A DNA stretch of 64,000 nucleotides from an uncultured bacterium (GCA_964387845.1 CAYLXA010000003.1:32001-96000); one strand, 5' to 3'; positions 5,473-59,243 are shown, counted from the stretch's first letter. Notes: generated by a model not told the origin, from the letters alone. Translations and numbers: made by a program.

Positions 5473-5480
5473 GTAGGGTT

Positions 5481-8793: not shown

Positions 8794-8857
8794 GGTTTTG
8801 TTTGTTTTAATTCGGTTAATTTTACCTTTTAATTAGTAAAACACTGCGTTGAGTTTC

Positions 8858-37265: not shown

Positions 37266-38228
37266 TTAGGATTTTTTTCGGGCAAGAACTTTTTCGACTG
37301 CTTTGAGGATACCGGCGGCGGTGAGGCCGTACTTTTCCATCAAACCATCCGGCGATCCGGATTCGGCGTAAGTGTCTTGAACGGCCACATATTCAATTGG
37401 TGTCGGACATTCCTCGGAAAGCACTTTCGCGACCACGCTTCCGAGGCCGCCGTAAATGGAATGTTCTTCTGCCGTCACAACGGCGCCGCATTTTTTGGCT
37501 TGAGCAACGACCAGCTCACGATCAAGCGGCTTAATGGTGTGAATGTCCACGACGGAAGCGTTAATTCCCTTTTCAGCCAATTTGTCCGCCGCAACAAGCG
37601 CTTCAAATACAAGAAGGCCGTTCGCAAAAATCGCGACGCTTGTGCCGTCTTTCAGCAAAACACCTTTTCCGATTTCAAATTTGGACACATCTGAGGCCGA
37701 ATAAACAAGCGGCGCTTTCGGACGCCCTGTGCGCATGAAAACCGGGCCTTTGTGTGCAACCATTTTCGCTGTGAGTCCCGCGGTTTCAAATTCATCGCAA
37801 GGGCCAAGCACAACAAAATTGGGCAAAGAAGCCGCGAGCGCGATATCTTCGATTGATTGCTGCGAAGCGCCGTCTTCGCCGATGGAAATACCGCAATGAG
37901 AACCGACGGCTTTTACATTTAATTCCGGAAATGCGACCGACATTCGAAGTTGGTCGTAAGTTTTACACATCAGAAACGTCGCGAAGCTGCTCATGCACGG
38001 AATAAATCCCGTAGTTGCAAGGCCTGAAGCGATACCCGCCATATTGGCTTCTTGAATGCCGCAATCAAAGAAACGATCCGGATGCGCTTTTGCGAAAACA
38101 TCGGTCTTTGTGGATTTTGCAAGATCGGCGTCCAGGACGATTACATTCGGGTTTGATTTGCCGACTTCGGCGATCGCCTTGCCGTACGCATCACGCGTTG
38201 CGGCGCCCATTTTACGTTCGCGGCTCAT
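37266..38228 (-). CDS. Transketolase, C-terminal (pyrimidine-binding) subunit
   Basis: 320 aa; split-transketolase B-chain motifs; overlaps N-terminal subunit gene by 4 nt. Confidence 0.9.
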   Translation of the reverse strand: MSRERKMGAATRDAYGKAIAEVGKSNPNVIVLDADLAKSTKTDVFAKAHPDRFFDCGIQEANMAGIASGLATTGFIPCMSSFATFLMCKTYDQLRMSVAFPELNVKAVGSHCGISIGEDGASQQSIEDIALAASLPNFVVLGPCDEFETAGLTAKMVAHKGPVFMRTGRPKAPLVYSASDVSKFEIGKGVLLKDGTSVAIFANGLLVFEALVAADKLAEKGINASVVDIHTIKPLDRELVVAQAKKCGAVVTAEEHSIYGGLGSVVAKVLSEECPTPIEYVAVQDTYAESGSPDGLMEKYGLTAAGILKAVEKVLARKKS

Positions 38229-39070
38229 AACTTCACCGCATTGAGTTCGGCTAAAGCTTTCTTTTCTTCTTCAGCCGTCGGCGCGACACCGTGGAAATGA
38301 TTGTTATTTTCCATAAACGAAACGCCCTTGCCTTTGACCGTATGCGCGATTAAGCAAATGGGTTTGCCTGATATTTTCTTCGCTGATTCCAAAGTTTTCA
38401 CAACTTCTTCCATGTTATGGCCGTCAAATTCGACGACATGCCAATTAAACGAGCGCCATTTGTCCGCGAGCGGTTCCATGTTGAGAATTTTCTCGGTAGA
38501 GTCCGAAAGCTGATATTTGTTGTAATCAATGATCAAAACCAAATGATCGATTTTGTGGTGCCACGCAAACGCAGCGCCTTCCCAGGTTTGGCCCTCGTCC
38601 ATTTCACCGTCCGACATCATGACGTAAGTCCAATAATCTTGCTTGCGAAGTTTTCGCGCAAGTGCCATTCCGATTCCGATCGATAAACCTTGGCCCAGCG
38701 AACCTGTGGATGCTTCAACGCCCGGCACGCGGCGGCGGTCCGGATGGCCCTGCATCGGGCTTCCGAGCTCGCGAAATGTCAAAAGCGTGTCGACTGAAAA
38801 ATATCCCGTACGCGCAAGAGCCGAATATAAAACCGGCGACGCATGGCCTTTGCTTAATATGAAGCGATCGCGGTCCGGCCATTCGGGATTTTTGGAATCA
38901 TGTTTGAGAATATTGAAATAGAGCGCGGTCAAAATATCAGTCGCAGAAAGCGAGCCGCCGGGATGTCCGGAGCCTGCTTTTGCCGTCATGCGGATGATGT
39001 CTTTTCGGATTTCGAGGGCGTGCTTTTTTAAATCCGGAATTGATACTTTTTGCATCTCTTTTGCTTGCAT
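38225..39070 (-). CDS. Transketolase, N-terminal (TPP-binding) subunit
   Basis: 281 aa; GHPGGSLS, MMSDGEMDEGQTWEGAAFA TPP-binding motifs. Confidence 0.9.
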   Translation of the reverse strand: MQAKEMQKVSIPDLKKHALEIRKDIIRMTAKAGSGHPGGSLSATDILTALYFNILKHDSKNPEWPDRDRFILSKGHASPVLYSALARTGYFSVDTLLTFRELGSPMQGHPDRRRVPGVEASTGSLGQGLSIGIGMALARKLRKQDYWTYVMMSDGEMDEGQTWEGAAFAWHHKIDHLVLIIDYNKYQLSDSTEKILNMEPLADKWRSFNWHVVEFDGHNMEEVVKTLESAKKISGKPICLIAHTVKGKGVSFMENNNHFHGVAPTAEEEKKALAELNAVKL

Positions 39071-42731: not shown

Positions 42732-45700
42732 TTACGCCGCTTTTCCAAGTACGGCGCGGCTAAAGAGCGTATGCATGAGTGAGCTGATAAATTCCGAGCT
42801 CGGATCGATCACGTCGCCCAACGAACGGAAATTGAACGAATCATTATGAGCGATTAGAAGCTGCGCAGCCTCAACGGCTCCCGGTCGGCCCAAAACTTTT
42901 GGAATATCACGCCGCGTGAGTTTTGAGAATAAATCGTGCTCGCCAATGGCCACAATCCGAGTCGTATCGCCTTTTGCATTGAGTTCATGTTTTAAGCGGT
43001 CGATTAAAATATTGTACGCTTGATCCGCCGAAAGTTCGCGGCCGACACTCAAACGCTCGCGCGTATAAAGCTGCAAGCGCGATCTTTGCCCGCTTTGCTT
43101 GCCAAAAATGTCGGCGTTTGGAAATAACTCTTCAACAGCCCTTTCGGCAACAAATGTGTTATCAAATTCGGAAGCGACAACCGAAAATTCGATTTTTGAA
43201 CCGGGATTTGCACTCATATCCGCCAAAATCGCTTCGCGCAATTCCGAACGGTTCTTCAATTCCTCAAACGAGATTACAATATTCCCCTTCACGTTTGACG
43301 GAATGCTTGCTTGATTCGCTTCACGCCTCAATTCAGACCGGGATTCTTGAGTTTCACCAAAAACCGCCTTAAGTCGATCCAAATATTGTGTCCGGTAAGC
43401 GCCCTCCGGAAAGTCTTCCAACTCGTCGGGATGGCTGCGGGCGGCGTCTGCTTCCTGTTCGACCTCATCGCCAACCCGTTCATCCTCTAAATATTCTTTG
43501 ATCACCTTCGTGGCCGCTTCAAGCTGTGCTTGGGTAATTCCCAATCGTTTAGGTGCTTCCAAATAAATTGCGATCGGTGTTTCATATATTGTGAAAAGCG
43601 TGGTGGCGGTTATCCGGCTTGAAAAATGATTCGCCGGATTATTTTCTTCACCAATCCAATAACGGACACCTGCCTCGATCAAAGGCAGTGTCAAGCCGAG
43701 CAATATTCGGCTTGGGCCTTCATGCAAGCCGGCAGCGTGATTTAAAACTGCGTGTTCAAGATGAAAAGAACTGTTGTCCAAACGGCTTTCAAAATGATCT
43801 TTAAATTCATTCCGGATATGCTCGATCAATGCCTCATCGCTTGTGCGCAATTCAGAGCGGGATTCGTCCTTTCGTACAAGAGCGCTCTTCCAGCCTCTTG
43901 ATTTTTGGCCGTCAGCGCCAACCGCCATCAGCATGTTGCCAAGTTCGTACGTTTGTAAATTGGTCCTGCCAAATACAGCATTTGTTAAAATTTTTACTTG
44001 CACACTTTTATCTTCGATTTCTGAAATTACTTTTAAGATTGGATTAGCATTGGTTAAAGCATCTTTAATGATCCACCTCGCTAAATATTTTGGAAACTTT
44101 AAGAAAAATTCTTCTTGTTCCAGAAAAGTCAAATCAGAAAATTTTTCATCCAAAATTCTGATCAATTCATCCGTTGTTTTGACCTCGCCAAATCTTGGCC
44201 AAGCCGGGAAGTTTTCCTGAATAAATTCTTGTATTTTTAAAACTCTTTGTGCATCGTTAGAAAATTTTTGTCCTTTTGTTGCTTCTGAGATTAACTGATT
44301 TGTCAGAAGGCGTGGATTTTCTATTTGATATAAATTCGAAATTTGAATTCTTTCATCTTTGGATAATTCCGATATTTTCTGCCGAAGACGGCGTTCTAAA
44401 TCCATATCTTTTTCAGGATCAATAAAGGGCAATTCGTAGAATGAGGCGTCTGCTAAATCAGGATGATGACGGGTTAAATAAGTCAGTAAAATATCTTGGA
44501 TGCTTCTGTTTTCCAAAGGTACGTTGCCATCGCCAAATTCCCGCACTAAGAGTTCTTTTTTATTTGAATCACCAGATATTAATAATCTATTCGAGGCATC
44601 AATAAAAACTTCCGGAATAATTCCGGGGAATGCGAGAACAATCTCTCGTCCTTGCCGGAAACTATTCGGCTGAAATTTTTCCTGTGCCCAATCCGGAATA
44701 TCAGTTCTTCCCCAAAGTCCGCCTGCTTCACCCATAAAATCCCGTTTTAATTCTCTTTCTAAAGACTCAAATGAAACACCAGCGCGCAAAAGCCAGCTTA
44801 ATTTGGTCCGCGCTTTCGAGAAAGTCATGTGATAAGGAATATTAATGGCGCCTGATTGCGAAACATTTGAAACAACAGGGATTTTCTTCCTTTTCAAACT
44901 TTGAATAGTAGCCCTGATATATTCGATCTCGGGGTTCTTTGAAAAATCGCCCTGGATAACAAGTCCTGCCCGAACGCCGGCTTGCTCTGCGTGCCGCTCG
45001 ATTCGATTGCCGGCTTGAAAGAGCACCAGCGCAGGCGTTGTTTCATCTATAAGCAAATGCTCAACATAACCAAATTCTTCATTTTTATGAAACTTTGGTT
45101 GTTTTTCTAGATTGGCCAATTTGCTGCTTACTGTTTGTAAGAAATCCATATCGAAACTGATATTTCCCTTGGAATCAACGGCGCCGATTGCTTTTCCATA
45201 ACTAGCAAAAAGACTCCCTTTTGAAGACGAGTCCGTTCTGATCTTCGAAATAAGACTTCCGAGATAGATTTGACTGTCAATGACAACATAGACCAAATTT
45301 GGAATATCTGTACGTTTTGCAACTTCTTCAGCTGCTTTCAAATTTAATATCTTTTCCTTTTCATTAACCGTGGAAGATCCTGTTAAAACAATTCGTGTCG
45401 GTAATGATCCATCAAATTCAAGCGAAAGAACCAGGCCTGTTTCTGCCAAGGTGTCGGTTCCGTGCGTGAGGATAATTCCACCCATTTCTCTTTGAGAAAC
45501 CTTGATCTCTTCGGCTAATGTCGTCTTCCTCGAGATTTCATCTTTGATATGATCAATTATTTTTTCCCATTCTTTCGGGCCAATATTCGTACTATCCGGA
45601 TTTTTATCGAAAACACTTTTGTAAAAAACAGTATTCTTTAAATGCGTTAATAAAACTCTTACCGCATCAACAGTCTTCCGCGCAAATTCGCCGATCATAT

Positions 45701-48700
45701 CAATCGTTCCGCCGGCATTTAAGATTGAAACGCCGGACAATTCTTTCTGAAGTTCTGCAATACTTTGCCCGCTGCGCAATTCGGATCTCACGTTTTCTTC
45801 AACCGGCTCTTCGGCATTCGGCTCATCGAGCTGTTTCAAGACGCGGTTTGTGGTAGCAATCGAATCTTCAAAAACGCCCAGCTCTTCCTTCGCTTTTTTC
45901 AATTCTAATAATTCCCTTGCCTGATCTTCAGGAAGTTCGACAATCCGGTCTTTGATTTCCAAAATCTTTTCAAGTCTGTCCGGACTAACGCCCAGCGCTT
46001 TCCTTAAAAATGCGGAATCTTTTAAATAATCAAAGAGCTTTTCGACCGCTTTGGCCATATCAAAAGGAGGAAGGATTTTGATGTATTGATCAATGTCGGG
46101 TGTTTTGTTTTCCCATGCATCTTTCAAGATCGTCACATTCTGGACTATTTTTTTCTTCGTTCCCTTTCCTCCCTTCACCGGAGCATCCACAATCTTGGGT
46201 GCCAATTCGATGCCGGTTAAACGAGCTATTTCCGGCATCCTGGATTCTTTGTTATAAAGCTCTTTTCTAACCCGGTAAGGCAGCCGCATAACCAGATCTG
46301 CATGAATACGAGCTCTTAATAGTGCTTTATACTCAGGGCTTCCGAATTCAATCGGTTTTTCGGGTTCAGGCTCTTGCGTGACAGAGGAATTTTCGAATGA
46401 ATCGACTAATGGGGTTTTTCCTATGATCGCCCGGGGTATCTCCAAACGCCTATTCGTTACCGCTGCCTGGCGAGCGTTTTTAGGTAAAAATTTATCGGCG
46501 AAATGCGGCGGATACGGATCCGCATTAAGTTCTAGAACCGTTTCGCGCCTAATCCCATAAATTAAATCTGAAGTCACATTCAATATTCTCGCCAACTTGC
46601 CCACTAATCTAGTAACTTCGGTGAATTTGACTTGTTTACTCCCGGAAAGCACTGCGTGAACATGCCCATAGGTTTCTTGTATTTGATTAAAAAGCTCGCT
46701 GGTAGTGATATGAGTAATGCCTCTTGCTTCAACAATGATTCTAATTCTGTCCCAATATGTCAAACTTGGATCAAACAAAGATTCGATAATGGCTGGCGTA
46801 AGAGCATAAATCGTCCATTGATCAACCGGAGATGCTCTTTCAATTTCCGAGACAAATGGTGGTTGCTGTTCTGGTTGGGGCGCTTCGGAAGCAGTTTCTG
46901 GAGTACTATCAATGTTTTTTAGCATTTCCGACAATCTAAGCGGCAACATTTCTTCTGCAGTTTCTTCTATCGTACCCGTCAGGGGTTGTTCTTCTGTTTC
47001 TGAGGGTTTAGCTTCAGTCAAAACTTCTTGTTTTACCAACTCAAGTTCTTGCTCGGTAGTCAAACCCAATCGTATGGAAAACTGTTCAAAGAGCATGATT
47101 TCTGGCCCTAAGATCCTTCTGATTTCTTTACCCTCTTCGCTTTCAGGAGTGTGGAGCAATTGTGCAAACTCCAAAGTATCTACTAACACTTCCCGGCTGG
47201 CAATACGCGGCCCCCCAAATGCGGGGTTGGTCGGCGGTACAAACAATAAACCTCGGTCAATCATATGCTGCAATGCTTCACCCATACGGGCTCCGCCGAT
47301 CGTGGTACCGAGCCGCGGATGCCAAACGACGTCCTGCGATTGGCCTTCCGATTTCGTATAAATTTCTTCCCAAAGAATCAATGCAATCAAGAGAGGCGCC
47401 ATTATCCTGCCTTTGTTCGGCCCGCTTTTGTATTTGAAAAGAACGTCGGGATCCTTCAGTAAAGTATCGGGAAGCAGATATTCTTTCACTGAAAATTTCA
47501 AATATTCTTTCAATGCGGCTTGATCCACGGAAAGATTTTCAAACGGTTGGTCTGGATTTCTGTTTAAGATTGCTTCTTCAATTTTTTTGCGAACCTCCGC
47601 ACCCATTTCATGATCAACTTCGAGCTGATTTTTGCTGTTAAACAATGATTCAAAATCCAACCCCACATGATTCGTGTATTCAGACATAGCTTCTACTTGC
47701 CATGGCTCTAGCTTTTCTGAAAGCCATTCGTGCACTTGCCCTACTCGAATGGTAACGTCCCGGTATTTTTCATCAGAATAAATTTGGTCAACTAATTTGC
47801 TAATTTCTTGAGGGTCTTCTTCTTTGATTGTCTTGAAAAATAAGTTTTCAAGATCGGCATCTCCCGTCAAATGATGAAGCAGCATATACCGAAGAATTGT
47901 TTTTTGCGTATTGCCTGCAAACCGCATTCCTCTCACAGTATCTGAATCCCTCATCTTAGTAATCGCTTTCATGGAGGAGCGCCGGATATTACCATGCATG
48001 CGCTCGACTGCCTGGCGATTAAGTCCGAAAATCAAATAAAGATCGATGATCATAAGCTGGGTTTCAACTGGAAGAGCTCCGCTTTGCTCGAAGCTTCTCT
48101 CAACAGCTTTATCAATCAATCCAATTTGACCTTCAATCAACAAATGTGTACGCCGGCTCGAATCCATCATCGATTTCAAAAGCTTCAATCGGTGGCCTTC
48201 GGCTAACGCTAAATCACGAAATTCGATCTGAAGCGTTGTGCTGCGATTCATTTCTATCTGGCGTGAAAAAACTTTGTCCAGTTTTTCAAACGCTTTTTCC
48301 AAGTCTATCTTTGCCTGGCCGATCAACTCTTCCGCAAGCTCCGGTTCGACTTGATCCACCAAGTGATCGGCTTGGTTTAGTTTTGCTTTTGCCTGGCCTA
48401 AATAATATTTAAACCATTGCTTATAAACTTGGGTTGAAATGTCTTCATAGATAGAACGTAAACGCCAATAAGCTTCTCCCCATTTGCTGGATGTTTGGCT
48501 CTCTTTAAATGAATCATCGTCCAAGAATGTTTTTACGGTTACGGCAACCTTCATCATGGTTTCGTAAAATAAATTAATTCTTGCTTGTTGAATGGAAATA
48601 TCCGATGCGCCGGATAGTGACTTGAAGTCTTTGTGCAAACGCCCGTAAACAGGAGATGTTCTGCTTTCAAAAAATATAGACTCTTTATTTTTAATATCCA

Positions 48701-51700
48701 AAAGAGAAAGCAAAACATCCAACTTTTTTAAGACGGTGTTGAGATGTCTGTTTTGAAGAATGGGCGGGATTCTGGCCGTTAAAGCATGGGCGCCTTCCAA
48801 CCATGAATAAAACGCATTCCGCTCATCAGAAGTTCCCATTAAATCGATAAATTCATCTAATTCCTTTTTTAACTTTACCAAGCTATCAAAGTGGCGAACC
48901 AGGTCGGAATTCTTCAAATCCGAAAGAAATGCATCTAGAAAAGCAGATGATTGAGACGCTATTTTCAACTGCTCTTCAAGTTTCGCCCGGCTTTCGGCAG
49001 TATTTTCGGAGGCCAATGCAGTCAAGGCAGTTTGGCGTAAAGCAGAAATGGATTCTACCTCGATAAACTTTTTGGCCAACTCGTCAATTTTCTGGATTCT
49101 CTGAATAATTTTTTCACTGCGGGTTTTCCGAACAAAAGAAACGGTTTCATTTTCATTTGATTTAACAATCAAATTTAAAATTAACGGCAGGGCTTCCTTT
49201 CTGAAGAATTTGCCCACGATTTTCCGGATCTCATCCAGTTTTTCTGACCGTCCTTTTTCCGGATTATTGGCAAGTTGATTAATGCTCAAAATTCCTTCGT
49301 CAACTTCAAGAAGCCACGAAAATACAGTTTCTATTTCACTTGCGGTGCCTAGATCAGAAATAAATTTTTCAAACCGGCTTTGGATTTCTCTCAGTTTGTG
49401 ATAAGCATCCCTGTTCTCACTTTCGGTAAGACCGTCAAATATTTTTTTCAGAATTTCAAAAGATTTTCTTGCTTCCGATCCAATATTTTTAAGATCTTCA
49501 AACCCTGCAAACGCCGTTTCGATGTCGAATTCCCCGTCACTTGAAGCAGGAATTAATTTGGATAAAACAAATGAGTCTAGATCGGAAAACCATGCGTCTG
49601 AAAAAAATGCTGCATATTGGGGCGCTGCGGCCGCATAAGTAGTTTTGCTGCGTGTGATTTGAGACAGTAATAAATTCCCGCGGCTATTCGCTGATTTCCA
49701 GCTGTTCATATTCATGCTTTCAAGCGAACGCAATTCTGATTTCTTGCTTTCAGCCGCATTCAACGTTTCGGCAATGAACGTTTTCATTACGCGATAGACA
49801 TATTCGGTTTGCTCTTGGGTAGGTTCGCTATTAAGAAAACGATCATAGAATTTGGCGGGATCCGAACCGCGCGGGTAAGCCTGTGAATAAGACAAAAGCC
49901 AGGCGCCAATAATAGATTGTCTAAACGTTGGAAGAGGAAGTTTTTTTAATTGTACGCCGCGGAGGCCGATGTTGACGAAAATAGCCGGCACATTTGCATC
50001 AAATTCTTTCCAACGGCGAAGGCGATGAATCGGCGCAAACCGGTCAAGCTCGCCCTTCCAAGGAATATAATCAATCTTCAAATCCTGCCCGTCGACCGTA
50101 ATTTTTTTCAAATCTTTGAGCAATTCCATAGCTTTAGAAGTGGCAATAATGCGGATCGGAGCGCGCGTTTCGCGAGGGCGTCTTTCCATAAACGTGATAT
50201 GCCAATCCATCATAAACGGAATATCGGGAAATTTTTGATGCAGGACCTGCATGAATTTTTCTCCGATTGGCGCCGGAATAGATTCAAAATTAGGCTGTGA
50301 ATCCGGTTTAATCTCGGCTATCAATTCTTCCGAAAATGCAGCCAACATTTTTTTGAATAACTTGTCCCGCTCTCCATGAAATTCGAGACGTTTTTGAAAA
50401 TCTGCGGCGCCTGCCGACATTTTTCGTTTCGTGCTCAAGCGCCGCTTTTTTCTTTCAGAAGGCCAATCTTTTTCTGCGTCATTTGTGATACGCTTTTGAA
50501 CAATATGCAGCAAGCGACTATTGATTTCATTACCGATTAAACCTTCCCGATCGGAAGCTTTGCTGAAATGAAAGTCGATCAAATTTAAACTGCTCTGGTC
50601 ATCACTTGTTTCAATTGCACGATCAATATCTTCTATCACTTTTTCCAATGTTTCAACAAACCACCGTTCTTTATCTTTGGAATATCGCTTTGACGCGGCC
50701 CCGTGCTCAAAAATTCTTCTCCCTTCTCTTCTATAAGCTTCGAGCATCCGCATAACACCCCGGTAAATCAAGTTGGTCTCGCCGACCGGCGTAAAAGACG
50801 ATCTCCACCTGCCGATTGCAGCATACCCGCCAAATTCTTGTTTCAAATCACGAATCATTGCTGCCGTGCGCTCCAAAGGATAATCACGATCAGTCAAGAT
50901 AAGCGGTGCTGTTCCTTCGGAGGATTTGACCGATTCCAGCAATTGAATTGCAGAACCAATGCTTTCCGGGAACAAATCTTCCGGAGCAAGCAGGCCCAGC
51001 TCAAACATGATTTGATTAAAAATGGTGCGCTGAGGGCCTCTCAGGCCTTTTATCCATGGATCTTTTTCGTAAATGGGCCGGATGCTTTTTGCGGTGATAT
51101 TGCCGTCTTCATCGCGATATTGATTGAATATATCGTTTTCGATTAAATATTCGATCGTGTTGTTTAAATAATCATACTGACGTAGCGTATCGGTCCATAA
51201 CAATAGAAGAAAAACAAGTTCGGGAGCCGGTTTTTGAAAGGGCATGAGCTGCTCGATTAATTCGTCGGATTCAAGAACTTTTCGGTAATAATCGACTAAA
51301 TTTTCAAATTTGGGATCTTTTATTTTATATTCTCCGCGATCAAACTTGCGAATAACTCTCCTAAGCACTATTCGAACGTCGTGCTTGAGCAGGGCTTCAT
51401 ACGCATACAACACACGTGATATTTTGTTGTCATAATCCCACGACGGATTTTTAGCAAAATCACTCTCGATCGCGATAAGGGTCCTAGCAATCAAACTTGC
51501 TGCATACATATTAGACCCCGGCAGCGGGTTGCCATACATGAGATCGGTTACATTTGGATGGACAATGTTTCCTGCGCGATCTGTCTCATCATTGGAAACA
51601 ACTTCATTGGGGAACACCTGATCCATAATAGCTTCACGGCTTCGAGTCCTCCGGTATTCTTCCCGTGCCCATTCTAAACGTTTTTTAAGTTGCCACCCTT

Positions 51701-54700
51701 TCGACCCTATTCCCAAAACAGACAACAACATCGCAATTGCATAATCCCGATAACCGACGTTTCCGACCATTTCAAACCGCAGCCTTGGATTGATTGCACG
51801 ATTCAGCCGGCGTACTACTTTTCGAAGAGAATGTTCATTTGCGTATTGAAACGCCGGAATTTTAAGTGCGATCGTGCTTGGAAGGCCCGCCTTCTCTTTA
51901 ATAGCACGCTCGTAATGATTTTCTTGCTCGTTTTCCGCTAATCCTGATAAAGCATGAAATATTTTCCTTTCGGCAGAATCCTCAGACTCCAAATAAGCAT
52001 GCCAAGCACGAGATTCAAATCGCCCCCACAAGTTTCCAAGTCCATGAAATTGGCTTTGAAATGCAAAAACCTGGCTTGCGCTCGCCATTTTATTTAGATG
52101 ATAACTGGCTTCGACAAGTTGACGATAAATATCGGGCAGGCCTTTTGAAGGCGTCATTTTGTACCGTTCTAGAGTTTCAAATGCGGCGTTCTTATGATAA
52201 TCAAAATAGAATTCGTGAATGCTTATGATTAACTCTCTGGTTTTTTCTTTAAAAACATCAATGGCGTGCGATTTCCCAAGCCCCATTGCGAGATCATAAA
52301 ACGATTGGAAGTACCGCGATAACCCCTCTGAGACTGCAAACCGGAGTCTCGCGTCGGTCTTGGATTTTTCGAGCAACGTATTTGTTATATCGCGAACAGG
52401 TTCAAAGAACACTTCCAACTTTGATTCGACGTTACTCTTTTTATTTCTTTTTGTACTGCCCTTTTTGATGTTGGCTGTCGCCAAACTAATTAAAAATTCT
52501 TGTGCGGTCTTTTGAGAAAAAGAATTGATGATGTGTTCCCACAAAAATATTGGTACTTTGATTTTAGATTTTGCACTCTGCACTAAATCTAAAAACATCC
52601 TTTCGGTCATTCTTTTATGATTGAAATTTTTTACGGGCAATACACGCACGCCGGGAATCGACTGAATTAAGAAATAGCTTTCTCTTTGGTCCTTATCTCC
52701 GCTTGTTTCTAACTTGCGGCTCGTAATGAGTTTGACTCTCGCAATAATTTTTAAGTCTGTTTGTTCTCCTCCGCGTGCAATCAAGAAACCATCTTCACGG
52801 CTTGGATTTAGTTTTATATCAAATTTTAAATCGTTTTGATTCTTTTCGCCGATGATCTGTTGGATTTTGTCCAAATCTTTCTGCCGATGCCATGCGGATC
52901 TGATTCCGACAAGAGAACCGCCCACCGATTCAACTCGCACTCTTGATATTTGTTTAGGGACAGATTCAACACGAATATGCATTGATTCGGTATTGCCATC
53001 CTCGTCAAAAACAACTGTAAATGTGCGACCGTGGCCAACTGAAACTAACTGCCGACCCACAAATCTTTTGGTACCAATCCGCTTCGCTTGAGAGATCAAT
53101 GCATCATCCGATCTGAGTTCAGACTTTTTTGTGGCCTGTCTTATTTCAAAATACTGCTGATAAAGTTCCTGAAAACTCGGCGTTTCCTGGATTTCAAGTT
53201 CGATTTCTCTAGCCATGTCCACTGCAGTGTCATTCAGAATATTTTCGTATGCACCAGCATCATAAGCTTTCTGTGAATCCTTACCGATTTCGTCCAGCCA
53301 TTTCCTCTCTGCCGGAATCCAGTCTTTATAATCATAAAAAATACTTTCGACATCCTCATAGGCCGTGAAGCGGATTAATTGTTTAAGAATAGCTAAAACC
53401 GCAGGGCTTACCGCAACGCTAATTGGAACATTGGCGTATTTACCTTTCATGTAGATTAAAAACAGCATGAACCGCCGCCAGCCAGCCATTTCGCCGCAGA
53501 TACTGACTTCCAACCCTGCCGCGCTCGCATGCTCAATGATTGTTTCGATCTTTTCAAGAAATGTGGAAAGCAATTCTGTGTACAATCTTCCGCCATATTC
53601 ACGGTCCCGGCCGAATGTTTGTTGCAATAAATCATTGGTGCCGATAGAAATAAAATCGACGTATTTCTTCTGTGCGATCACCGGAAGATTTTCAATGGCT
53701 TTGTTGGTTTCGATCATAATTCCGAACGGAATTTTGATCCGGAAGCGATTAAGATCGTGACGAAATTTTTCTAACTCCTGATCAAAGATAGTCCGGACAA
53801 ATATTACGTCATCCTCAGTTTGAACCATCGGTACAAATACTTTGACCGCAGATTCTCTTCCGGTTTCTCCTTCGGCGTGAAAATGCTCTGCAGCCATAAT
53901 GCTCGCGCGAATTGCCGCTCGAATTTGAGCTCTCAAGATCGGTTCGCCTTCCGTAGGATCCCTGTAAAGATCGAACCCGATTTTTGTATTCGTTTCTGAA
54001 ATGGCTGAAACAGGCTTGTCCAGCTGACGGTCTAACGTTCTTACCGCAAATGCGCCACGTAAGATAATCCTGCCCTGAGATAATATTTGAGTAAGATCGT
54101 CTTCATATTCTTTTATATTTGCTTCCCAGGATTCGTGGCGGTAGAAATGCGTAGGGAAATTGACTTCGGTTCGATAGAGCCGCACACCATCCGTATCTGC
54201 GGAAAGCTCTTGAATATGTTCAAGCGCATCCGCACTTCCGCTAACTTCCATCAACAGTGAAGCAACGCTGTCTTTCTTTGCAAACACAGGTTCTAGTGCG
54301 AGGGTTTTTGCCAATTGCAAATACGCTTCTTCCTTGACGATTTTCTGTTCATATTCGGCAGCATCTTTTTGTGAAGGATTGGCATGCAGCATTCCGTTTT
54401 CCCCGTCCGCATAAATGATTTGCCCTGACTTGATATCTGCAAACTTACCTAGTTTGGCCTTGAGCGCGGTAAGAACTAAGATCCCGTAATTAGCGCCGAC
54501 AATAACCCAATGTTCGGTGGGAGATCCAAACTCGGCTACAACCGCACCCAAATTTGGGTAAGCTTTTTTTAGACTTAAGAGAGTCGGCGCATTCATCGCT
54601 CCTGCCAAATACGGCTGTTCTTTTGAGACTTTTAAAATAACCACCAAATGATCAACTTTATCCGTCGTAAATTGCTGATCCGACACCAATTGCCGCGCCA

Positions 54701-57700
54701 TTTTTTCGTTTAGAATCAAAACTGCGTCTTTTAAAAGAACTAAAATATTTAGCAGCGTTTTCTCCTGAAGATCGGATGTGTCTTCAGAACTCATCTTGGT
54801 GCCGATATCCAAAATCAACTTTTGATAAGCATATTGGAGCGCAACATCAGGATACACATTTTTTGTATTGATTAACCAGCTGGTTTCTTCTTGAAATCGA
54901 TCAAGAAGCTCTTGAAATGAATACTTATCCGGCATGTTGTCGACAGGCGCTTGATCAACTAATTGGTCAGCCGCTGATTGAAATGCGCTTGCTATTTGAT
55001 CGTTGTATTCTTTGATTTTCTCTTGATAGAGTTCCTCGGACATTCCTTCCATTTTAAAAGACTCGCCATAGCTCAAAAAACTCATCATCCGGTAGAGCGT
55101 GGAAAGGATTTCCCTATTTCGAGCCTTGATCTGTTTTTCTTCATCCGTGCCCTCGGTTCCCTTGAGAGATTCGATGGCATTATGGATATCTTTAACAATT
55201 CTAGGAATTGGCTGGCCGGCTTTTTCAAGCTGTGTATAAGCATTGGGGTGCGCATACAACTTAAACGCATCGAAATATGAGATTTTTTTGTCCTTCAAAG
55301 ATTCCATCACTAATTTTATTGAATCGGTGTTATATTTAAAAAATTGCCATGTGATTTCTAATGCTTTTGCATCACGCAGACGCCCTTTTTGCTTTAGATC
55401 CCGAATTCTAATTTGAAAATCGAAATTAAAAATATCTAGAATCGCTTTAAAATGTTGCACATCACGTTCGGCAGCTTCAGGGCTAAGAATGGCAGGCTGT
55501 TTAAATTTGCTGCTAAATTTTTCCAAACTCTCTCCTAGCGCTCTGCTCGACCACAAATAGTAAATCTGAAAACCAACGCTATTCACTTTTGATTTAATTT
55601 CTTCTTCAAGAAGATGATCCGCTCTTTTCCCTTCGCTTTCTATTTTTTCCAGAACAGAATCTTTCAATTCGTCTAAAACTTGCAGTAAATTTTTGTTCGA
55701 TTGGTCTTCTTCCAAAATCATCCTGTCTATCTTTTCTGAAAATTTTACCTTTTCGATTCTTATCTTTTCTTGAACATCTGGTTCTTCATCCAAATTCGAT
55801 CTCAACGAATAAGCAGCTGTAAAAAAGTCGTCTGCCTGGAAAAGCATCGTGGTGCCTCGAAATACACGCCGGGCCTGATTTTTATTGCCCTGCATCAGAA
55901 CGGTTCGAAGTTCTGATCTTTTTTCCGATTCGCCTTCGGCATCACTTGTTTTGCTTTTGGATTTTTTCTCTTCGATCATTTCTTCAATGAGATCCAGCAG
56001 ATCTGTTAGTTGAGGGGGCAAAACTCCTTCGATTGCGTCCATGCTCAGCCCTGTATTCGCAATCACTCTTGCGATTATTTCGAGAGCGCTGTTTCCTGTA
56101 GAAACCGGATTTGCATTTATAATTGCCGCTATTTCCTCGTCATTTACTGATTCTTCTTTCGGGTCAAAATAAGAAGCGATTCCGGATTGCGCAGCAGGTT
56201 TTTCGGATTTGTTTTCTGCTGCTTGAGGTTGGGTTTGCGGCTCTGCCGGCTGTGCTGATTTGGCTTTTTCAATGACGAGTTGAAAAAAAGCGTCTCTCTG
56301 GTTTTGCTTTATCGATTTGAATTGATCATTTATAAACTTAGCGAAGGTCGATCCTGCTCTTAAGGGAAATTTATTCACGCTCGGATTCCCTTGTTTATAT
56401 TCGCTTGCCAATGCGCCACTCTTGTTAGCGTCTGTGATAATTGTCCGCTCAATTTCTGTTAGGTTGCCTTCCTTCCCCTCGGCAAGTTTCACAACGCCGG
56501 AAAAAAATGCTTCCACGTTTGCCTGCTGCGTCATATCTGCCGGAACTCCCGCCGCCCAATCGATCAATTTTTGGATTTGCGAATTGACAGCCCGCAATTC
56601 AGAACGATCGTTCTTCTCAGATTGTTGAGAAGGTTGTATAGAAACTGCATACGAGGCCAATTTCGAATCATCAAAATATGCCCTATCAATAAACTTTTCA
56701 AAAGTGGCTTGCCAACCGTCAGGGTTGTAGTAATACTCGGGCAACGATTTTCCTGATTTTGCTTGCACTTCGGATGCAAACCTGAGCAAAGCTTGTTGGA
56801 TAGGAACAAGAAACCGGTTATCAAAATTCTCCGCCGCTGTCCCCGGATTATTTTTGTTGATCAACGCACGCGTATATCCCAATTGCAGCGTCATTAGTTT
56901 CAAAATGTATCTTGATTTTTTCCAGTTCTTATCATTTGCGGCATCACGAAATCTCGATGAATCATAATGAAGGCGCGTTAATGTTGCCGCAAGTGATTCC
57001 GGATATTGATCCCTGGAGACATAGCGGACTTTAAGCCAATCAGATGCAACATCATCTAAAAATACCGAAACAACTCTGTGGGGAGTTTGTTCAATAACAA
57101 CCGACTCTGGATCCTTGAAACCAACCACCCCATTCTCATAAGCAAGATGGCCGACTTCGTGATACACATGATAATCGCTTACCCATTCAAATAACCGTGC
57201 CCTGTCTTCCTTATTTCCAATCTCACCGTGGTGGATAATTTGATGCTGGAGCATTGCCATTCTGAGTGAAATTCGGAGTCTGCGATAAGTTTCGTCATAA
57301 ATTAACGAAAATCCTGTATTGTCAGCCATAGATTCCGAATCTTTCATTTCAGCCGAAAAATTGATAGAGGGTGTCTCTAAAAATTTCTTCAACTCTGCCG
57401 GTAACTTTTCATAACTCTCAGAGGTTCGGCTTATCATCAAAAACGAATCCAAAATCTCTTCCATACTTAAATTGAGCTTCTTGAGTTCGCGATAAATCAT
57501 GATTAGCATAGAAAAAATATTTTGGCTTAATTTGTCAGGAAATTTACTTGTTGAAGATGGGATATAAAGGAATGATGATTGACCGCCTCGATAGGCCGAA
57601 ATAATAACATCAATTGGCCTTGCAAAAAGCCATCTTGAAAAGTAAATAAGCATCACTTGTGTAAGTTTTTTGATTTGAGACAGGTTGGGAAATTCTGGTT

Positions 57701-59243
57701 GTAAACGCAATTCCGATCTGTGTGAAATTGGATCTGCAGAATTAAAATATTCCTGCGGATTAAAATCCGAATTAAAAACTTGAAGCGGATTTGAGATGGC
57801 GGAAGATTTTAGAAACTCTTCGAACTTGGGTTTTAGTTTCTCAAAAGTTGGTGTTTCACCGTTCATGCGTTCGTAATAGCGGTCGTAATCCGTTTCCGGA
57901 GAAACTTGCGGCGAAATCAAAACAAACGGAATGTTTTCCTTTCGGAATTTTTCGGTTAGGTCTTCGGCATGAAAACCGCCGGTGACGAGGATAATGCCGG
58001 AGCCCGGCGGTAAAGGGTAAGCGTTAGGCGTTAAGTCTGACTTATCGCTTAACGCGTAACGCTTAACGCTATTTAAGAATGCTTCATCGCGTCTTTTGCT
58101 GGTGGTATAAAACTGTTCAGCAACATTGAGTTTTTTCGGATCTAGTTTTCCTTTGAGAAATTTTGTAATTTCTTTTTTGTGCTGTTGGTAAAATAGAAAG
58201 TCTTCCGGAGTTGCCTGCAGCGAAACGAGCGCTTTAACGGATTTTAAATATTCGCCTTCTTCATGAAGCCCTTCCTCACCTTTTCCGGAAAACAAACGCT
58301 CACGGACACGGTCTTTGAAAAGACTAATTTCACGAAACAAATTTACAGCACCGATTTCGCGGCTGATTCTTTCAAATTCTTTCTTCTCATCTATTTTTTC
58401 GCCGGCTTTCACACCCGTTAAACTGCGCTCCAATAGAACAAGCGATATTAATTTCTCAATCTCATACAAATCCGAGCGCTTGACGCCTTCGTTGCGCCCA
58501 ATATTCGCTAAATGAGAGATCAGCGAAATTAATTCGCCGCGCTGTTCGTATAAGCCCGTTTTTGTTTCGAATTCGAGCAAGCGCTTGTTGTACGTTTTCT
58601 CTTTCGCTTCCTGATTTTCTTTAAAAAGAAAATGGACGGCGGGCAAAAGTTCTTTTTGCACTTCAAGTGCTTTTAAAAATTCCTTCCGGTTTGAATCATA
58701 AAGTGCCGCATCTTCGGCCCCGATTAACTCATAGGACTTGGGGTTTAAAACGGCTTCTGCTTCAATGCCGGTTAAAATAACCTGCTCAAGCCAAAATCGG
58801 GTGGCGAGTTCTTTTACTTTTTGGTTAGGATAATTACGAAATCTGAAAAGATCTGCAGTGCCGGATGCGCCCTCGGCTAAAATCGTGCGGACGCCGAATT
58901 TTTCCGATATAAGCCTTGCGATCTTCTGAATATTCTGCTGAGCGCCCAGGTTTGCGTGAGCATCTTGGATGTAAAAAACTATAGGGGCAAGGGTCATGGG
59001 TCCAGGGTCAAGGTTCGTTCCTTGACCCTTGCTACTTGCTACTTGACCCTTCGGAATAAAGACTTCCGAGACACGCCCCAGAGCTTCTGGAATTAAATTT
59101 CCAAAATCCTGTTGATTAGATATGGGTCTTTGGTAATCAAGAGGCGCTGCATGAGAGATGTCTGCCCAGATAAACGCCACGATTAGGACAAACGCAATAA
59201 TGCGGAGAGCCGGAGAATATTTTTTGTTTTGGGGGAAAAACAA
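42732..59243 (-). CDS. Giant multidomain protein (5,503 aa) with N-terminal signal anchor, HExxH, PEP-utilising-enzyme-like and asparaginase-like modules, nine [RK]SELR motifs
   Basis: Single uninterrupted 16,512-nt ORF; TTG start preceded by GAGGTG; hydrophobic segment LRIIAFVLIVAFIWADISHA; YHVYHEVGHLAYENG; DGVRLYRTEVNF / FISIGTNDLLQQTFGRDREYGG / SICGEMAG; LNAGGTIDM / ILTHGTDTLAETG. Confidence 0.85.
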   Translation of the reverse strand: MFFPQNKKYSPALRIIAFVLIVAFIWADISHAAPLDYQRPISNQQDFGNLIPEALGRVSEVFIPKGQVASSKGQGTNLDPGPMTLAPIVFYIQDAHANLGAQQNIQKIARLISEKFGVRTILAEGASGTADLFRFRNYPNQKVKELATRFWLEQVILTGIEAEAVLNPKSYELIGAEDAALYDSNRKEFLKALEVQKELLPAVHFLFKENQEAKEKTYNKRLLEFETKTGLYEQRGELISLISHLANIGRNEGVKRSDLYEIEKLISLVLLERSLTGVKAGEKIDEKKEFERISREIGAVNLFREISLFKDRVRERLFSGKGEEGLHEEGEYLKSVKALVSLQATPEDFLFYQQHKKEITKFLKGKLDPKKLNVAEQFYTTSKRRDEAFLNSVKRYALSDKSDLTPNAYPLPPGSGIILVTGGFHAEDLTEKFRKENIPFVLISPQVSPETDYDRYYERMNGETPTFEKLKPKFEEFLKSSAISNPLQVFNSDFNPQEYFNSADPISHRSELRLQPEFPNLSQIKKLTQVMLIYFSRWLFARPIDVIISAYRGGQSSFLYIPSSTSKFPDKLSQNIFSMLIMIYRELKKLNLSMEEILDSFLMISRTSESYEKLPAELKKFLETPSINFSAEMKDSESMADNTGFSLIYDETYRRLRISLRMAMLQHQIIHHGEIGNKEDRARLFEWVSDYHVYHEVGHLAYENGVVGFKDPESVVIEQTPHRVVSVFLDDVASDWLKVRYVSRDQYPESLAATLTRLHYDSSRFRDAANDKNWKKSRYILKLMTLQLGYTRALINKNNPGTAAENFDNRFLVPIQQALLRFASEVQAKSGKSLPEYYYNPDGWQATFEKFIDRAYFDDSKLASYAVSIQPSQQSEKNDRSELRAVNSQIQKLIDWAAGVPADMTQQANVEAFFSGVVKLAEGKEGNLTEIERTIITDANKSGALASEYKQGNPSVNKFPLRAGSTFAKFINDQFKSIKQNQRDAFFQLVIEKAKSAQPAEPQTQPQAAENKSEKPAAQSGIASYFDPKEESVNDEEIAAIINANPVSTGNSALEIIARVIANTGLSMDAIEGVLPPQLTDLLDLIEEMIEEKKSKSKTSDAEGESEKRSELRTVLMQGNKNQARRVFRGTTMLFQADDFFTAAYSLRSNLDEEPDVQEKIRIEKVKFSEKIDRMILEEDQSNKNLLQVLDELKDSVLEKIESEGKRADHLLEEEIKSKVNSVGFQIYYLWSSRALGESLEKFSSKFKQPAILSPEAAERDVQHFKAILDIFNFDFQIRIRDLKQKGRLRDAKALEITWQFFKYNTDSIKLVMESLKDKKISYFDAFKLYAHPNAYTQLEKAGQPIPRIVKDIHNAIESLKGTEGTDEEKQIKARNREILSTLYRMMSFLSYGESFKMEGMSEELYQEKIKEYNDQIASAFQSAADQLVDQAPVDNMPDKYSFQELLDRFQEETSWLINTKNVYPDVALQYAYQKLILDIGTKMSSEDTSDLQEKTLLNILVLLKDAVLILNEKMARQLVSDQQFTTDKVDHLVVILKVSKEQPYLAGAMNAPTLLSLKKAYPNLGAVVAEFGSPTEHWVIVGANYGILVLTALKAKLGKFADIKSGQIIYADGENGMLHANPSQKDAAEYEQKIVKEEAYLQLAKTLALEPVFAKKDSVASLLMEVSGSADALEHIQELSADTDGVRLYRTEVNFPTHFYRHESWEANIKEYEDDLTQILSQGRIILRGAFAVRTLDRQLDKPVSAISETNTKIGFDLYRDPTEGEPILRAQIRAAIRASIMAAEHFHAEGETGRESAVKVFVPMVQTEDDVIFVRTIFDQELEKFRHDLNRFRIKIPFGIMIETNKAIENLPVIAQKKYVDFISIGTNDLLQQTFGRDREYGGRLYTELLSTFLEKIETIIEHASAAGLEVSICGEMAGWRRFMLFLIYMKGKYANVPISVAVSPAVLAILKQLIRFTAYEDVESIFYDYKDWIPAERKWLDEIGKDSQKAYDAGAYENILNDTAVDMAREIELEIQETPSFQELYQQYFEIRQATKKSELRSDDALISQAKRIGTKRFVGRQLVSVGHGRTFTVVFDEDGNTESMHIRVESVPKQISRVRVESVGGSLVGIRSAWHRQKDLDKIQQIIGEKNQNDLKFDIKLNPSREDGFLIARGGEQTDLKIIARVKLITSRKLETSGDKDQRESYFLIQSIPGVRVLPVKNFNHKRMTERMFLDLVQSAKSKIKVPIFLWEHIINSFSQKTAQEFLISLATANIKKGSTKRNKKSNVESKLEVFFEPVRDITNTLLEKSKTDARLRFAVSEGLSRYFQSFYDLAMGLGKSHAIDVFKEKTRELIISIHEFYFDYHKNAAFETLERYKMTPSKGLPDIYRQLVEASYHLNKMASASQVFAFQSQFHGLGNLWGRFESRAWHAYLESEDSAERKIFHALSGLAENEQENHYERAIKEKAGLPSTIALKIPAFQYANEHSLRKVVRRLNRAINPRLRFEMVGNVGYRDYAIAMLLSVLGIGSKGWQLKKRLEWAREEYRRTRSREAIMDQVFPNEVVSNDETDRAGNIVHPNVTDLMYGNPLPGSNMYAASLIARTLIAIESDFAKNPSWDYDNKISRVLYAYEALLKHDVRIVLRRVIRKFDRGEYKIKDPKFENLVDYYRKVLESDELIEQLMPFQKPAPELVFLLLLWTDTLRQYDYLNNTIEYLIENDIFNQYRDEDGNITAKSIRPIYEKDPWIKGLRGPQRTIFNQIMFELGLLAPEDLFPESIGSAIQLLESVKSSEGTAPLILTDRDYPLERTAAMIRDLKQEFGGYAAIGRWRSSFTPVGETNLIYRGVMRMLEAYRREGRRIFEHGAASKRYSKDKERWFVETLEKVIEDIDRAIETSDDQSSLNLIDFHFSKASDREGLIGNEINSRLLHIVQKRITNDAEKDWPSERKKRRLSTKRKMSAGAADFQKRLEFHGERDKLFKKMLAAFSEELIAEIKPDSQPNFESIPAPIGEKFMQVLHQKFPDIPFMMDWHITFMERRPRETRAPIRIIATSKAMELLKDLKKITVDGQDLKIDYIPWKGELDRFAPIHRLRRWKEFDANVPAIFVNIGLRGVQLKKLPLPTFRQSIIGAWLLSYSQAYPRGSDPAKFYDRFLNSEPTQEQTEYVYRVMKTFIAETLNAAESKKSELRSLESMNMNSWKSANSRGNLLLSQITRSKTTYAAAAPQYAAFFSDAWFSDLDSFVLSKLIPASSDGEFDIETAFAGFEDLKNIGSEARKSFEILKKIFDGLTESENRDAYHKLREIQSRFEKFISDLGTASEIETVFSWLLEVDEGILSINQLANNPEKGRSEKLDEIRKIVGKFFRKEALPLILNLIVKSNENETVSFVRKTRSEKIIQRIQKIDELAKKFIEVESISALRQTALTALASENTAESRAKLEEQLKIASQSSAFLDAFLSDLKNSDLVRHFDSLVKLKKELDEFIDLMGTSDERNAFYSWLEGAHALTARIPPILQNRHLNTVLKKLDVLLSLLDIKNKESIFFESRTSPVYGRLHKDFKSLSGASDISIQQARINLFYETMMKVAVTVKTFLDDDSFKESQTSSKWGEAYWRLRSIYEDISTQVYKQWFKYYLGQAKAKLNQADHLVDQVEPELAEELIGQAKIDLEKAFEKLDKVFSRQIEMNRSTTLQIEFRDLALAEGHRLKLLKSMMDSSRRTHLLIEGQIGLIDKAVERSFEQSGALPVETQLMIIDLYLIFGLNRQAVERMHGNIRRSSMKAITKMRDSDTVRGMRFAGNTQKTILRYMLLHHLTGDADLENLFFKTIKEEDPQEISKLVDQIYSDEKYRDVTIRVGQVHEWLSEKLEPWQVEAMSEYTNHVGLDFESLFNSKNQLEVDHEMGAEVRKKIEEAILNRNPDQPFENLSVDQAALKEYLKFSVKEYLLPDTLLKDPDVLFKYKSGPNKGRIMAPLLIALILWEEIYTKSEGQSQDVVWHPRLGTTIGGARMGEALQHMIDRGLLFVPPTNPAFGGPRIASREVLVDTLEFAQLLHTPESEEGKEIRRILGPEIMLFEQFSIRLGLTTEQELELVKQEVLTEAKPSETEEQPLTGTIEETAEEMLPLRLSEMLKNIDSTPETASEAPQPEQQPPFVSEIERASPVDQWTIYALTPAIIESLFDPSLTYWDRIRIIVEARGITHITTSELFNQIQETYGHVHAVLSGSKQVKFTEVTRLVGKLARILNVTSDLIYGIRRETVLELNADPYPPHFADKFLPKNARQAAVTNRRLEIPRAIIGKTPLVDSFENSSVTQEPEPEKPIEFGSPEYKALLRARIHADLVMRLPYRVRKELYNKESRMPEIARLTGIELAPKIVDAPVKGGKGTKKKIVQNVTILKDAWENKTPDIDQYIKILPPFDMAKAVEKLFDYLKDSAFLRKALGVSPDRLEKILEIKDRIVELPEDQARELLELKKAKEELGVFEDSIATTNRVLKQLDEPNAEEPVEENVRSELRSGQSIAELQKELSGVSILNAGGTIDMIGEFARKTVDAVRVLLTHLKNTVFYKSVFDKNPDSTNIGPKEWEKIIDHIKDEISRKTTLAEEIKVSQREMGGIILTHGTDTLAETGLVLSLEFDGSLPTRIVLTGSSTVNEKEKILNLKAAEEVAKRTDIPNLVYVVIDSQIYLGSLISKIRTDSSSKGSLFASYGKAIGAVDSKGNISFDMDFLQTVSSKLANLEKQPKFHKNEEFGYVEHLLIDETTPALVLFQAGNRIERHAEQAGVRAGLVIQGDFSKNPEIEYIRATIQSLKRKKIPVVSNVSQSGAINIPYHMTFSKARTKLSWLLRAGVSFESLERELKRDFMGEAGGLWGRTDIPDWAQEKFQPNSFRQGREIVLAFPGIIPEVFIDASNRLLISGDSNKKELLVREFGDGNVPLENRSIQDILLTYLTRHHPDLADASFYELPFIDPEKDMDLERRLRQKISELSKDERIQISNLYQIENPRLLTNQLISEATKGQKFSNDAQRVLKIQEFIQENFPAWPRFGEVKTTDELIRILDEKFSDLTFLEQEEFFLKFPKYLARWIIKDALTNANPILKVISEIEDKSVQVKILTNAVFGRTNLQTYELGNMLMAVGADGQKSRGWKSALVRKDESRSELRTSDEALIEHIRNEFKDHFESRLDNSSFHLEHAVLNHAAGLHEGPSRILLGLTLPLIEAGVRYWIGEENNPANHFSSRITATTLFTIYETPIAIYLEAPKRLGITQAQLEAATKVIKEYLEDERVGDEVEQEADAARSHPDELEDFPEGAYRTQYLDRLKAVFGETQESRSELRREANQASIPSNVKGNIVISFEELKNRSELREAILADMSANPGSKIEFSVVASEFDNTFVAERAVEELFPNADIFGKQSGQRSRLQLYTRERLSVGRELSADQAYNILIDRLKHELNAKGDTTRIVAIGEHDLFSKLTRRDIPKVLGRPGAVEAAQLLIAHNDSFNFRSLGDVIDPSSEFISSLMHTLFSRAVLGKAA

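Follow-up and report, generated by a model that had tools for sequence, protein, structure and literature searches.

An Enzyme I-like module holds the only cysteine of a giant, Omnitrophota-type polyprotein

Results

A giant gene of an uncultured bacterium encodes an Enzyme I-like module. We analyzed a 64,000-nucleotide (nt) stretch of DNA (GCA_964387845.1 CAYLXA010000003.1:32001-96000; hereafter the window, with positions counted from its first letter), whose minus strand holds an open reading frame (ORF) of 5,503 amino acids (aa). One module of the encoded protein resembles Enzyme I (EI), the starter enzyme of the bacterial sugar-phosphotransferase relay. We consider this EI-like module to be, with somewhat better than even likelihood, an active phosphoenolpyruvate (PEP)-dependent histidine phosphotransferase with a non-standard protein acceptor. 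The ORF, the module and its parts are as follows.

42732..59243, minus strand: giant modular ORF, 5,503 aa, TTG start, polyprotein-like, single Cys
55905..55919, minus strand: RSELR separator, aa 1109-1113, directly upstream of the EI-like module
53136..55904, minus strand: complete EI-like module, aa 1114-2036 (923 aa), delimited by end-to-end alignment with the homologous modules of five other proteins (P0003-P0007), an AlphaFold2 model and Foldseek
55839..55901, minus strand: N-terminal beta-hairpin, aa 1115-1135, G-x-K-N-Q-x-R-R-V-F-x-G-T, with model strands at module residues 2-8 and 14-22
54666..55826, minus strand: helical domain of about 390 aa, aa 1140-1526, model helices within module residues 27-413
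54381..54647, minus strand: swivel phospho-histidine domain, aa 1533-1621, PF00391 match below threshold, model alpha/beta fold at module residues 420-508, aligning to EI residues 177-250
54510..54512, minus strand: His1578 codon, predicted phospho-acceptor within G-S-P-T-E-H-W, aligning to EI His189
54303..54371, minus strand: linker helix between swivel and TIM barrel, aa 1625-1647, model helix at module residues 512-534
53370..54287, minus strand: PEP-binding TIM barrel, aa 1653-1958, PF02896, model module residues 540-845, with R1691, R1735, D1738, K1743, E1845, N1870, D1871, R1881 and C1916
53496..53498, minus strand: codon of Cys1916, equivalent to EI Cys502, the sole Cys of the 5,503-aa protein
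53139..53360, minus strand: C-terminal helical extension, aa 1962-2035, model helices at module residues 849-922
53112..53126, minus strand: KSELR separator, aa 2040-2044, directly downstream of the EI-like module

The module starts one residue past RSELR and ends four residues ahead of KSELR. The initial annotation of the window had placed a PEP-utilising unit, of an Enzyme-I or PPDK kind, at 53550-54750 and had quoted four motifs for it.

54474-54527, minus strand: GSPTEHWVIVGANYGILV, aa 1573-1590, in the swivel-like stretch
54156-54191, minus strand: DGVRLYRTEVNF, aa 1685-1696
53589-53654, minus strand: FISIGTNDLLQQTFGRDREYGG, aa 1864-1885
53481-53504, minus strand: SICGEMAG, aa 1914-1921

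All four are indeed encoded in one minus-strand frame inside the giant ORF. Three of them fall within the annotated range, while SICGEMAG lies about 50 nt outside it. The unit itself proved larger than annotated, at about 2.8 kb (53136-55904) rather than 1.2 kb, with the hairpin and the helical domain of about 390 aa lying upstream of the noted range.

The module is most similar to Enzyme I in sequence and fold. The Pfam hidden Markov model (HMM) PF02896 (PEP-utilizers_C) matches the module with 128 bits (E=5.5e-37; cut-off 22.8). The best NCBIfam match is the Enzyme I model TIGR01417 (PTS_I_fam; 133.8 bits, E=6.4e-39), and the dikinase models score lower (PEPS, 58.5 bits with a cut-off of 598; PPDK, 46 bits with a cut-off of 843). 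A phmmer search of Protein Data Bank (PDB) sequences returned the Staphylococcus and E. coli EIs (2hro, 2wqd and 2hwg; E ~5e-18 to 3e-17), and the identity of the module to Enzyme I is ~19-30%. An AlphaFold2 model built with the family alignment as input (predicted local distance difference test score 85.4, predicted template modeling score 0.82) shows hairpin, all-helical domain, swivel with the His, linker helix, TIM barrel and C-terminal helices in this order, which is the full EI architecture. The best Foldseek matches of this model are full-length Enzyme I structures (2hwg_A, E=2.2e-20, 610 aligned columns). Lower in the ranking are PPDK (E ~1e-13), EIC domains (~1e-12, TM-score 0.75-0.78) and EIN alone (1zym, 4e-5).

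The N-terminal part of the module also appears to be of EI type. In the model, the hairpin, whose G6 and N9 (module numbering) are invariant in alignment A2, would correspond to the first strands of the EIN alpha/beta subdomain. When the N-terminal profile of the family was compared by hhalign with the EIN of 15 ordinary EIs, module aa ~124-219 matched with a probability of 89% (E=2e-6). This suggests that the helical domain contains, and greatly expands, the HPr-binding subdomain. Judging from the model, the helical domain of ~390 aa would take the place of the HPr-binding alpha-subdomain of ~110 aa in EI, at about 3.5 times the size. The combination of a hairpin and an EIN-like helical region points to a unit of the EI type, not the dikinase type.

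An alternative is that the module belongs to a dikinase-type unit resembling PEP synthase or PPDK, in which His1578 would shuttle phosphate to or from a nucleotide-binding domain located elsewhere, and the other substrate would be pyruvate/PEP or a small acceptor, not a protein. The PEPS and PPDK HMMs do match the barrel, and PPDK structures are among the Foldseek matches (E ~1e-13). Furthermore, one relative, P0008, carries a PPDK_N ATP-grasp domain fused to an EI-like module, which is why we keep dikinase-like coupling as a rival. However, scores are much higher for EI models and structures than for dikinases, and the N-terminal hairpin with its EIN-like helical region is an EI architecture. 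The window protein was scanned in eight segments, made by cutting at the separators or by grouping the stretches between them, and none gave a PPDK_N or ATP-grasp match. In P0008, about four hydrophobic segments set the ATP-grasp off from the EI-like module. We therefore regard a dikinase as unlikely. Of the two enzyme types named by the initial annotation, Enzyme I is borne out by the best HMM and fold matches and by the EIN-like region; the PPDK type, lacking an ATP-grasp, is not.

P0008 is a protein of 2,084 aa (locus L016, GCA_041650215.1 JBAZLO010000063.1, gene 46-6300). It joins the PPDK_N ATP-grasp (PF01326, E=4.8e-15), the hydrophobic segments, about four in number, and an EI-like module of the long-helical kind.

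Catalytic residues are conserved within the family. His1578 is matched at residue level to His189/190, the T-S-H histidine of the E. coli and Staphylococcus EIs, in agreement with the initial annotation, where the His of a T-E-H motif had been put at the phospho-His position. R1691, R1735, K1743, E1845, N1870, D1871 and R1881 correspond to R296, R332, K340, E431, N454, D455 and R465 of E. coli EI, respectively. We aligned 10 family sequences, which are 20-31% identical to the window module. The phospho-His and the equivalents of R296, R332, K340, E431 and N454 are invariant among them, and those of D455, R465 and C502 reach a conservation of at least 90%; the sole sequence without C502 is truncated. 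Since the catalytic residues are kept, the sole Cys included, the EI-like module is probably active.

The residues flanking the phospho-His set the polyproteins apart. Among 31 ordinary EIs, the residue before the phospho-His is S in 27, T in three and G in one; E was not seen (0/31), in keeping with the earlier remark that T-E-H is unusual. Nor does W follow the His in any of the 31. In the six polyproteins, the context is G-[STG]-[PS]-x-E-H-W. E-H-W is specific to the polyprotein clade; the position ahead of the phospho-His is A or S in most stand-alone relatives.

The catalytic Cys is the only one in the giant protein. With one Cys in 5,503 residues, the protein is strongly depleted relative to 39 neighboring ORFs (1.24% Cys; binomial P ~1e-28). 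The same trend is found in its relatives. P0007 (6,402 aa) has one Cys, homologous to Cys1916, and P0005 has three, the Cys1916 equivalent among them. Giant ORFs that share the N-terminal domain described below are also Cys-poor, with 0.02-0.25% Cys in the relatives. No such depletion is seen in stand-alone homologues of the EI-like module, whose Cys content is normal. A Cys-purged protein that retains only the catalytic thiol of its PEP site provides strong evidence for selection on catalysis.

The EI-like family is rare. When 1.84 billion representative proteins were searched exhaustively with a 931-aa module query, seven were retrieved at E<1e-30: the window protein (P0002), five further giant proteins of 3,051-6,402 aa (P0003-P0007) and P0008. 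The unit of about 900 aa also occurs in proteins of 1,100-2,100 aa (P0009, P0010, P0029, P0109, P0116 and P0142). Ranked after the family are thousands of ordinary EIs of ~570 aa that match the C-terminal ~400 residues only. Word-index homologue searches, run with the single module and with the family alignment, gave ordinary EIs and no members of the EI-like family. Of 17 loci picked up in a metagenome scan with a degenerate DNA pattern for Y-P-N-L...E-H-W, one was real and encodes the same protein as P0007.

The giant protein opens with a putative signal peptide and a conserved domain. Two features lie ahead of the enzyme modules.

59145..59243, minus strand: signal-peptide-like N-terminal segment, aa 1-33, n-region basic, hydrophobic stretch IIAFVLIVAFIW, cleavage predicted at SHA|AP
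57720-59243, minus strand: N-terminal domain of ~500 aa, Y-I-Q-D-A-H-A-N ... V-T-G-G-F-H-A-E-D-L

In a Kyte-Doolittle scan, aa 12-30 are the sole transmembrane-like segment of the giant protein. Homologues have SFS|AP or AWS|AP at the position of SHA|AP. We infer from these sequence features that the N-terminus is a Sec signal peptide; the initial annotation, which had called the protein exported, is upheld to that extent. An extracytoplasmic fate would agree with both export and the depletion of Cys.

The N-terminal domain is common to all six polyprotein representatives that carry the EI-like module, the window protein included. The window copy is 45-59% identical to those of the other five by blastp and 48-63% identical in the alignment. 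In a genome scan it opens giant ORFs at 11 loci, nine in genomes named Omnitrophota or Omnitrophica and two in other metagenome-assembled genomes (MAGs). The host of the giant protein is thus an Omnitrophota-type bacterium. Profile searches of Pfam and PDB with this domain were without any match. A likeness to TIKI/TraB-type proteases was considered and dropped, because these searches gave no support.

Another module of the giant protein, aa 4488-5130, contains an asparaginase/GatD-like domain (PF00710, E=7e-20) at 45225-45731 on the minus strand. It retains the G-G-T-I and H-G-T-D-T motifs and, among the polyproteins compared, was found in the window protein only.

A short peptide motif separates the modules. 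We find nine [KR]SELR motifs in the giant protein, where 0.24 would be expected, and these delimit ten modules. Their codons start at the following positions.

57719, 56606, 55919, 53126, 49742, 45788, 43859, 43340 and 43250, minus strand: [KR]SELR motifs

Selection acts on the peptide, because the SELR codons vary between copies; for the same reason, we rejected the idea that SELR is a DNA-level repeat. Homologous modules in P0003-P0007 are bounded by the same motif (also by RAELR), even though the neighboring modules differ. The wider pattern [KR][SA]ExR, with variants such as RSEVR, RSEAR and RAETR, shows ~10-40-fold enrichment in the majority of the other giant ORFs with the N-terminal domain, but not in all. 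The stand-alone relatives P0008 and P0009 lack it, and P0010 has one RAERR. The [KR]SELR motifs are therefore presented as candidate processing or linker sites. A literature search for a SELR motif in polyproteins was without any match.

These features could also describe an exported effector, that is, a secreted polyprotein cut at [KR]SELR whose EI-like module drains PEP or phosphorylates foreign targets in the cytoplasm of a prey or host cell. The signal-peptide-like N-terminus and the extreme Cys depletion fit this, as do separators that are conserved at the protein level and enriched ~10-40-fold, and modules that are shuffled between orthologous loci. In addition, Omnitrophota have been suggested to live as predators or parasites, and their giant proteins are suspected of being cleaved (PMC10066038; bioRxiv 10.1101/2023.11.21.568195). 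However, no protease domain, translocation domain or secretion-system gene was recognized in the giant protein or in its scanned neighbors, cleavage at the separators is hypothetical, and the stand-alone relatives look membrane-tethered and cytoplasmic. On balance, an effector role seems rather unlikely.

Candidate partners of the EI-like module lie in the same protein. Two other modules were considered for this role.

43485..43769, minus strand: core of an HPr-like module, aa 5159-5253, with His5174 in N-H-A-A-G-L-H-E-G-P
49743..53111, minus strand: orphan module m5, aa 2045-3167 (1,123 aa), delimited by blastp of modules, candidate downstream partner

With moderate confidence, we propose the HPr-like module and its His5174 as a candidate phospho-acceptor. 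The module (aa 5132-5304) and its homologue in P0006 are 40% identical and share A-V-L-N-H-x-A-G-[LF]-H-x-x-P. The P0006 copy gives a weak match to Pfam PTS-HPr (E=0.16). At the position of HPr Arg17, the window copy has Gly and P0006 has Arg. The HPr-like alignment retrieved no HPr in a profile search of the PDB and no relatives in a metagenome scan. Foldseek matches of the module were not significant, although NPr and HPr top the list.

A bona fide HPr domain does occur in a related polyprotein, one without an EI-like module, at locus L002 (PCVY01000038.1, Candidatus Omnitrophica CG11, ORF 454-8805). This HPr domain (PF00381, aa ~880-954; 41.3 bits, E=1.6e-10) directly follows an RSELR and forms one separator-delimited module with an m5-like region.

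Module m5 adjoins the EI-like module, on either side, in 6/6 polyproteins. Nothing in Pfam, NCBIfam, PADLOC or PDB matched it, profile searches included, and PADLOC gave nothing credible for any module of the giant protein. Elsewhere in the window, tblastn revealed no canonical PTS genes, only a weak match at 34582-34635 within an unrelated small secreted ORF.

Giant genes differ in their modules at one chromosomal locus. The P0006 locus is syntenic with the window and comprises an acyltransferase, GH1, the giant gene, an MqnA-type VitK2 biosynthesis gene and an M24 peptidase. Window positions 39661-61938 share this gene order around the giant gene with L014 (ERZ27258550 k141_1246787), in which the giant gene encodes 3,051 aa versus 5,503 aa in the window. 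Because gene order is kept while giant-gene lengths differ, modules have been gained or lost at one chromosomal locus.

Two neighboring genes have unusual structures. A ThyX-type thymidylate synthase ORF of 519 aa (35552-37111, minus strand) contains two Thy1 (PF02511) stretches, and its doubled length, about twice the usual, suggests an internally duplicated ThyX. A transketolase (37266-39070, minus strand) is split over two adjoining ORFs with a 4-nt overlap, one for the N-terminal half and one for the pyrimidine-binding plus C-terminal half.

Discussion

The EI-like unit is an Enzyme I homologue and forms a new clade of the EI family. Enzyme I is among the best-studied bacterial phosphotransferases, and the module resembles PTS Enzyme I (PtsI; E. 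coli 2HWG; Staphylococcus 2HRO/2WQD) in its domain order, in His189 and eight active-site equivalents, and in being matched best by EI in HMM, sequence and fold. It is unlike PtsI in having a helical domain of ~390 rather than ~110 aa and a C-terminal helical extension, in reading G-S-P-T-E-H-W where PtsI has G-G-x-T-S-H-[AST], in the loss of Arg358, and in its setting, since PtsI is a cytoplasmic enzyme of ~570 aa and the module is part of a signal-peptide-bearing protein of 5,503 aa. It should not be filed as PtsI, because the equivalog threshold, the canonical His context, R358 and a standard EIN all fail.

EI cores fused to other modules, HPr and EIIA included, are known from EI-Ntr/PtsP, which has an N-terminal GAF domain, and from FPr-type multiphosphoryl transfer proteins; P0152, P0155 and P0156 are examples of such fusions. 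Those proteins keep a canonical EIN, T-S-H and R358 and are scored as EI. In the giant protein, by contrast, the EI core itself is altered and its partners are set off by [KR]SELR. The swivel His domain and the PEP/pyruvate TIM barrel are common to the window module, PPDK and PEP synthase, but the two dikinases have no counterpart of the EIN-like N-terminal part of the module.

We propose the following mechanism for the module. The TIM barrel would bind PEP and Mg2+, the swivel His1578 would attack the phosphoryl group, and Cys1916 would protonate the pyruvate enolate. The phospho-His domain could then swing over to the enlarged helical domain (~390 aa), where the phosphoryl group would be passed to a docked protein partner other than a standard HPr. 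The best candidate for this acceptor may be the HPr-like module of the same protein (aa 5159-5253, His5174), and m5 (aa 2045-3167) would be the likely final target. The arrangement of modules suggests a relay from EI-like to HPr-like to m5. Because the partner-binding domain is rebuilt and the His context changed in the EI-like clade, a new acceptor is implied. Three traits distinguish this clade from housekeeping EI, namely E-H-W around the phospho-His, the size of the helical domain and the lost Arg358 of EI.

Several observations weigh against an active, protein-directed phosphotransferase. The TIGR01417 score (133.8 bits) is far under the equivalog cut-off of 341.7. The swivel HMM PF00391 stays sub-threshold (17.8 bits, E=0.0025; cut-off 23.1), so that, of the PEP-utilising domains that the initial annotation expected HMMs to recover, PF02896 passes and PF00391 does not. 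PF05524, the HPr-binding helical subdomain of Pfam, was not detected in the EI-like module, and the HPr-like module is present in only two of the six EI-containing polyproteins. Predicted export is hard to square with a PEP-dependent enzyme, PEP not being expected outside the cytoplasm.

The active site is also altered at one position. EI R358 is replaced by Asp1758 in the window module, and the column holds D, K, E or A in the family, with R in P0142 only. The corresponding motif, N-P-x-L-G-x-R-x-x-R, is found in 29/31 ordinary EIs and is essentially absent from the EI-like family. As to the catalytic Cys and Arg residues, a check suggested by the initial annotation, the equivalents of C502, R296, R332 and R465 are thus present and R358 is lost. 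In EI, Arg358 lies in the beta3-alpha3 loop, within the dimer interface, and contacts the PEP phosphoryl group (PMC5537066). Its loss across the EI-like family means that PEP affinity, substrate or dimerization may differ.

Such changes would fit a non-catalytic derivative, either a PEP/pyruvate-sensing domain or a purely structural scaffold in the giant protein. The loss of Arg358, the unusual His context and the sub-threshold PF00391 match are all consistent with it, and an extracytoplasmic location, if the prediction is correct, would leave the module without substrate. Nevertheless, all other catalytic residues are conserved despite an overall identity of 20-31%, and the single Cys left in a Cys-purged protein is a strong argument for thiol-dependent chemistry. 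A non-catalytic role thus appears distinctly unlikely, and we continue to favor an active PEP-dependent histidine phosphotransferase that serves a protein other than standard HPr.

MARTX-type toxins are giant secreted polypeptides in which several unrelated enzyme modules are freed by cutting of linkers. The window protein is a giant multi-enzyme polypeptide as well, although the likeness is one of analogy only and its processing is hypothetical. Pfam matches to RTX repeats or to a cysteine-protease domain were not found in the window protein, and its single Cys sits in the EI barrel.

Closer parallels are found within the phylum. Giant multi-enzyme proteins of Omnitrophota have been described, and their post-translational cleavage is suspected (bioRxiv 10.64898/2026.06.07.730766; bioRxiv 10.1101/2023.11.21.568195; PMC10066038). 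Like them, the window protein has relatives in Omnitrophota MAGs, an N-terminal signal or membrane segment and unrelated enzyme domains tiled on one polypeptide; unlike them, at 5.5 thousand amino acids (kAA) it is under the 10 kAA cut-off of the published catalogue. The initial annotation held a phosphotransferase-like unit inside an exported giant protein to be unexpected. The setting is less so, because enzyme domains in giant Omnitrophota proteins have already been described (bioRxiv 10.64898/2026.06.07.730766).

The main texts of these three accounts make no mention of PEP-utiliser or PTS content (bioRxiv 10.64898/2026.06.07.730766; bioRxiv 10.1101/2023.11.21.568195; PMC10066038), and those of the two preprints make none of HPr and asparaginase content (bioRxiv 10.64898/2026.06.07.730766; bioRxiv 10.1101/2023.11.21.568195). 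In the portions of the published accounts of Omnitrophota giant proteins that we consulted, we met no description of [KR][SA]ExR separators or Cys purging, although no text search was directed at the motif. One of the three accounts says outright that the cleavage points of giant proteins are unknown.

The finding has several consequences for the study of these bacteria. The sole Cys is a natural marker, and an unusually clean one, of an enzyme in use, and the EI-like module could be expressed alone and tested biochemically. The separators on its two sides are concrete candidates for processing sites of Omnitrophota giant proteins and can be tested. It is conceivable, if rather unlikely, that the modules are freed from an exported precursor, so that the EI-like module, the HPr-like module and m5 would constitute a self-contained, PEP-driven phosphorelay outside the cytoplasm of the producer, for example in or on prey or host. 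If true, this would represent a PTS-derived effector system together with the first processing sites to be defined in giant proteins of Omnitrophota. The window protein thus offers a handle on this group of giant proteins.

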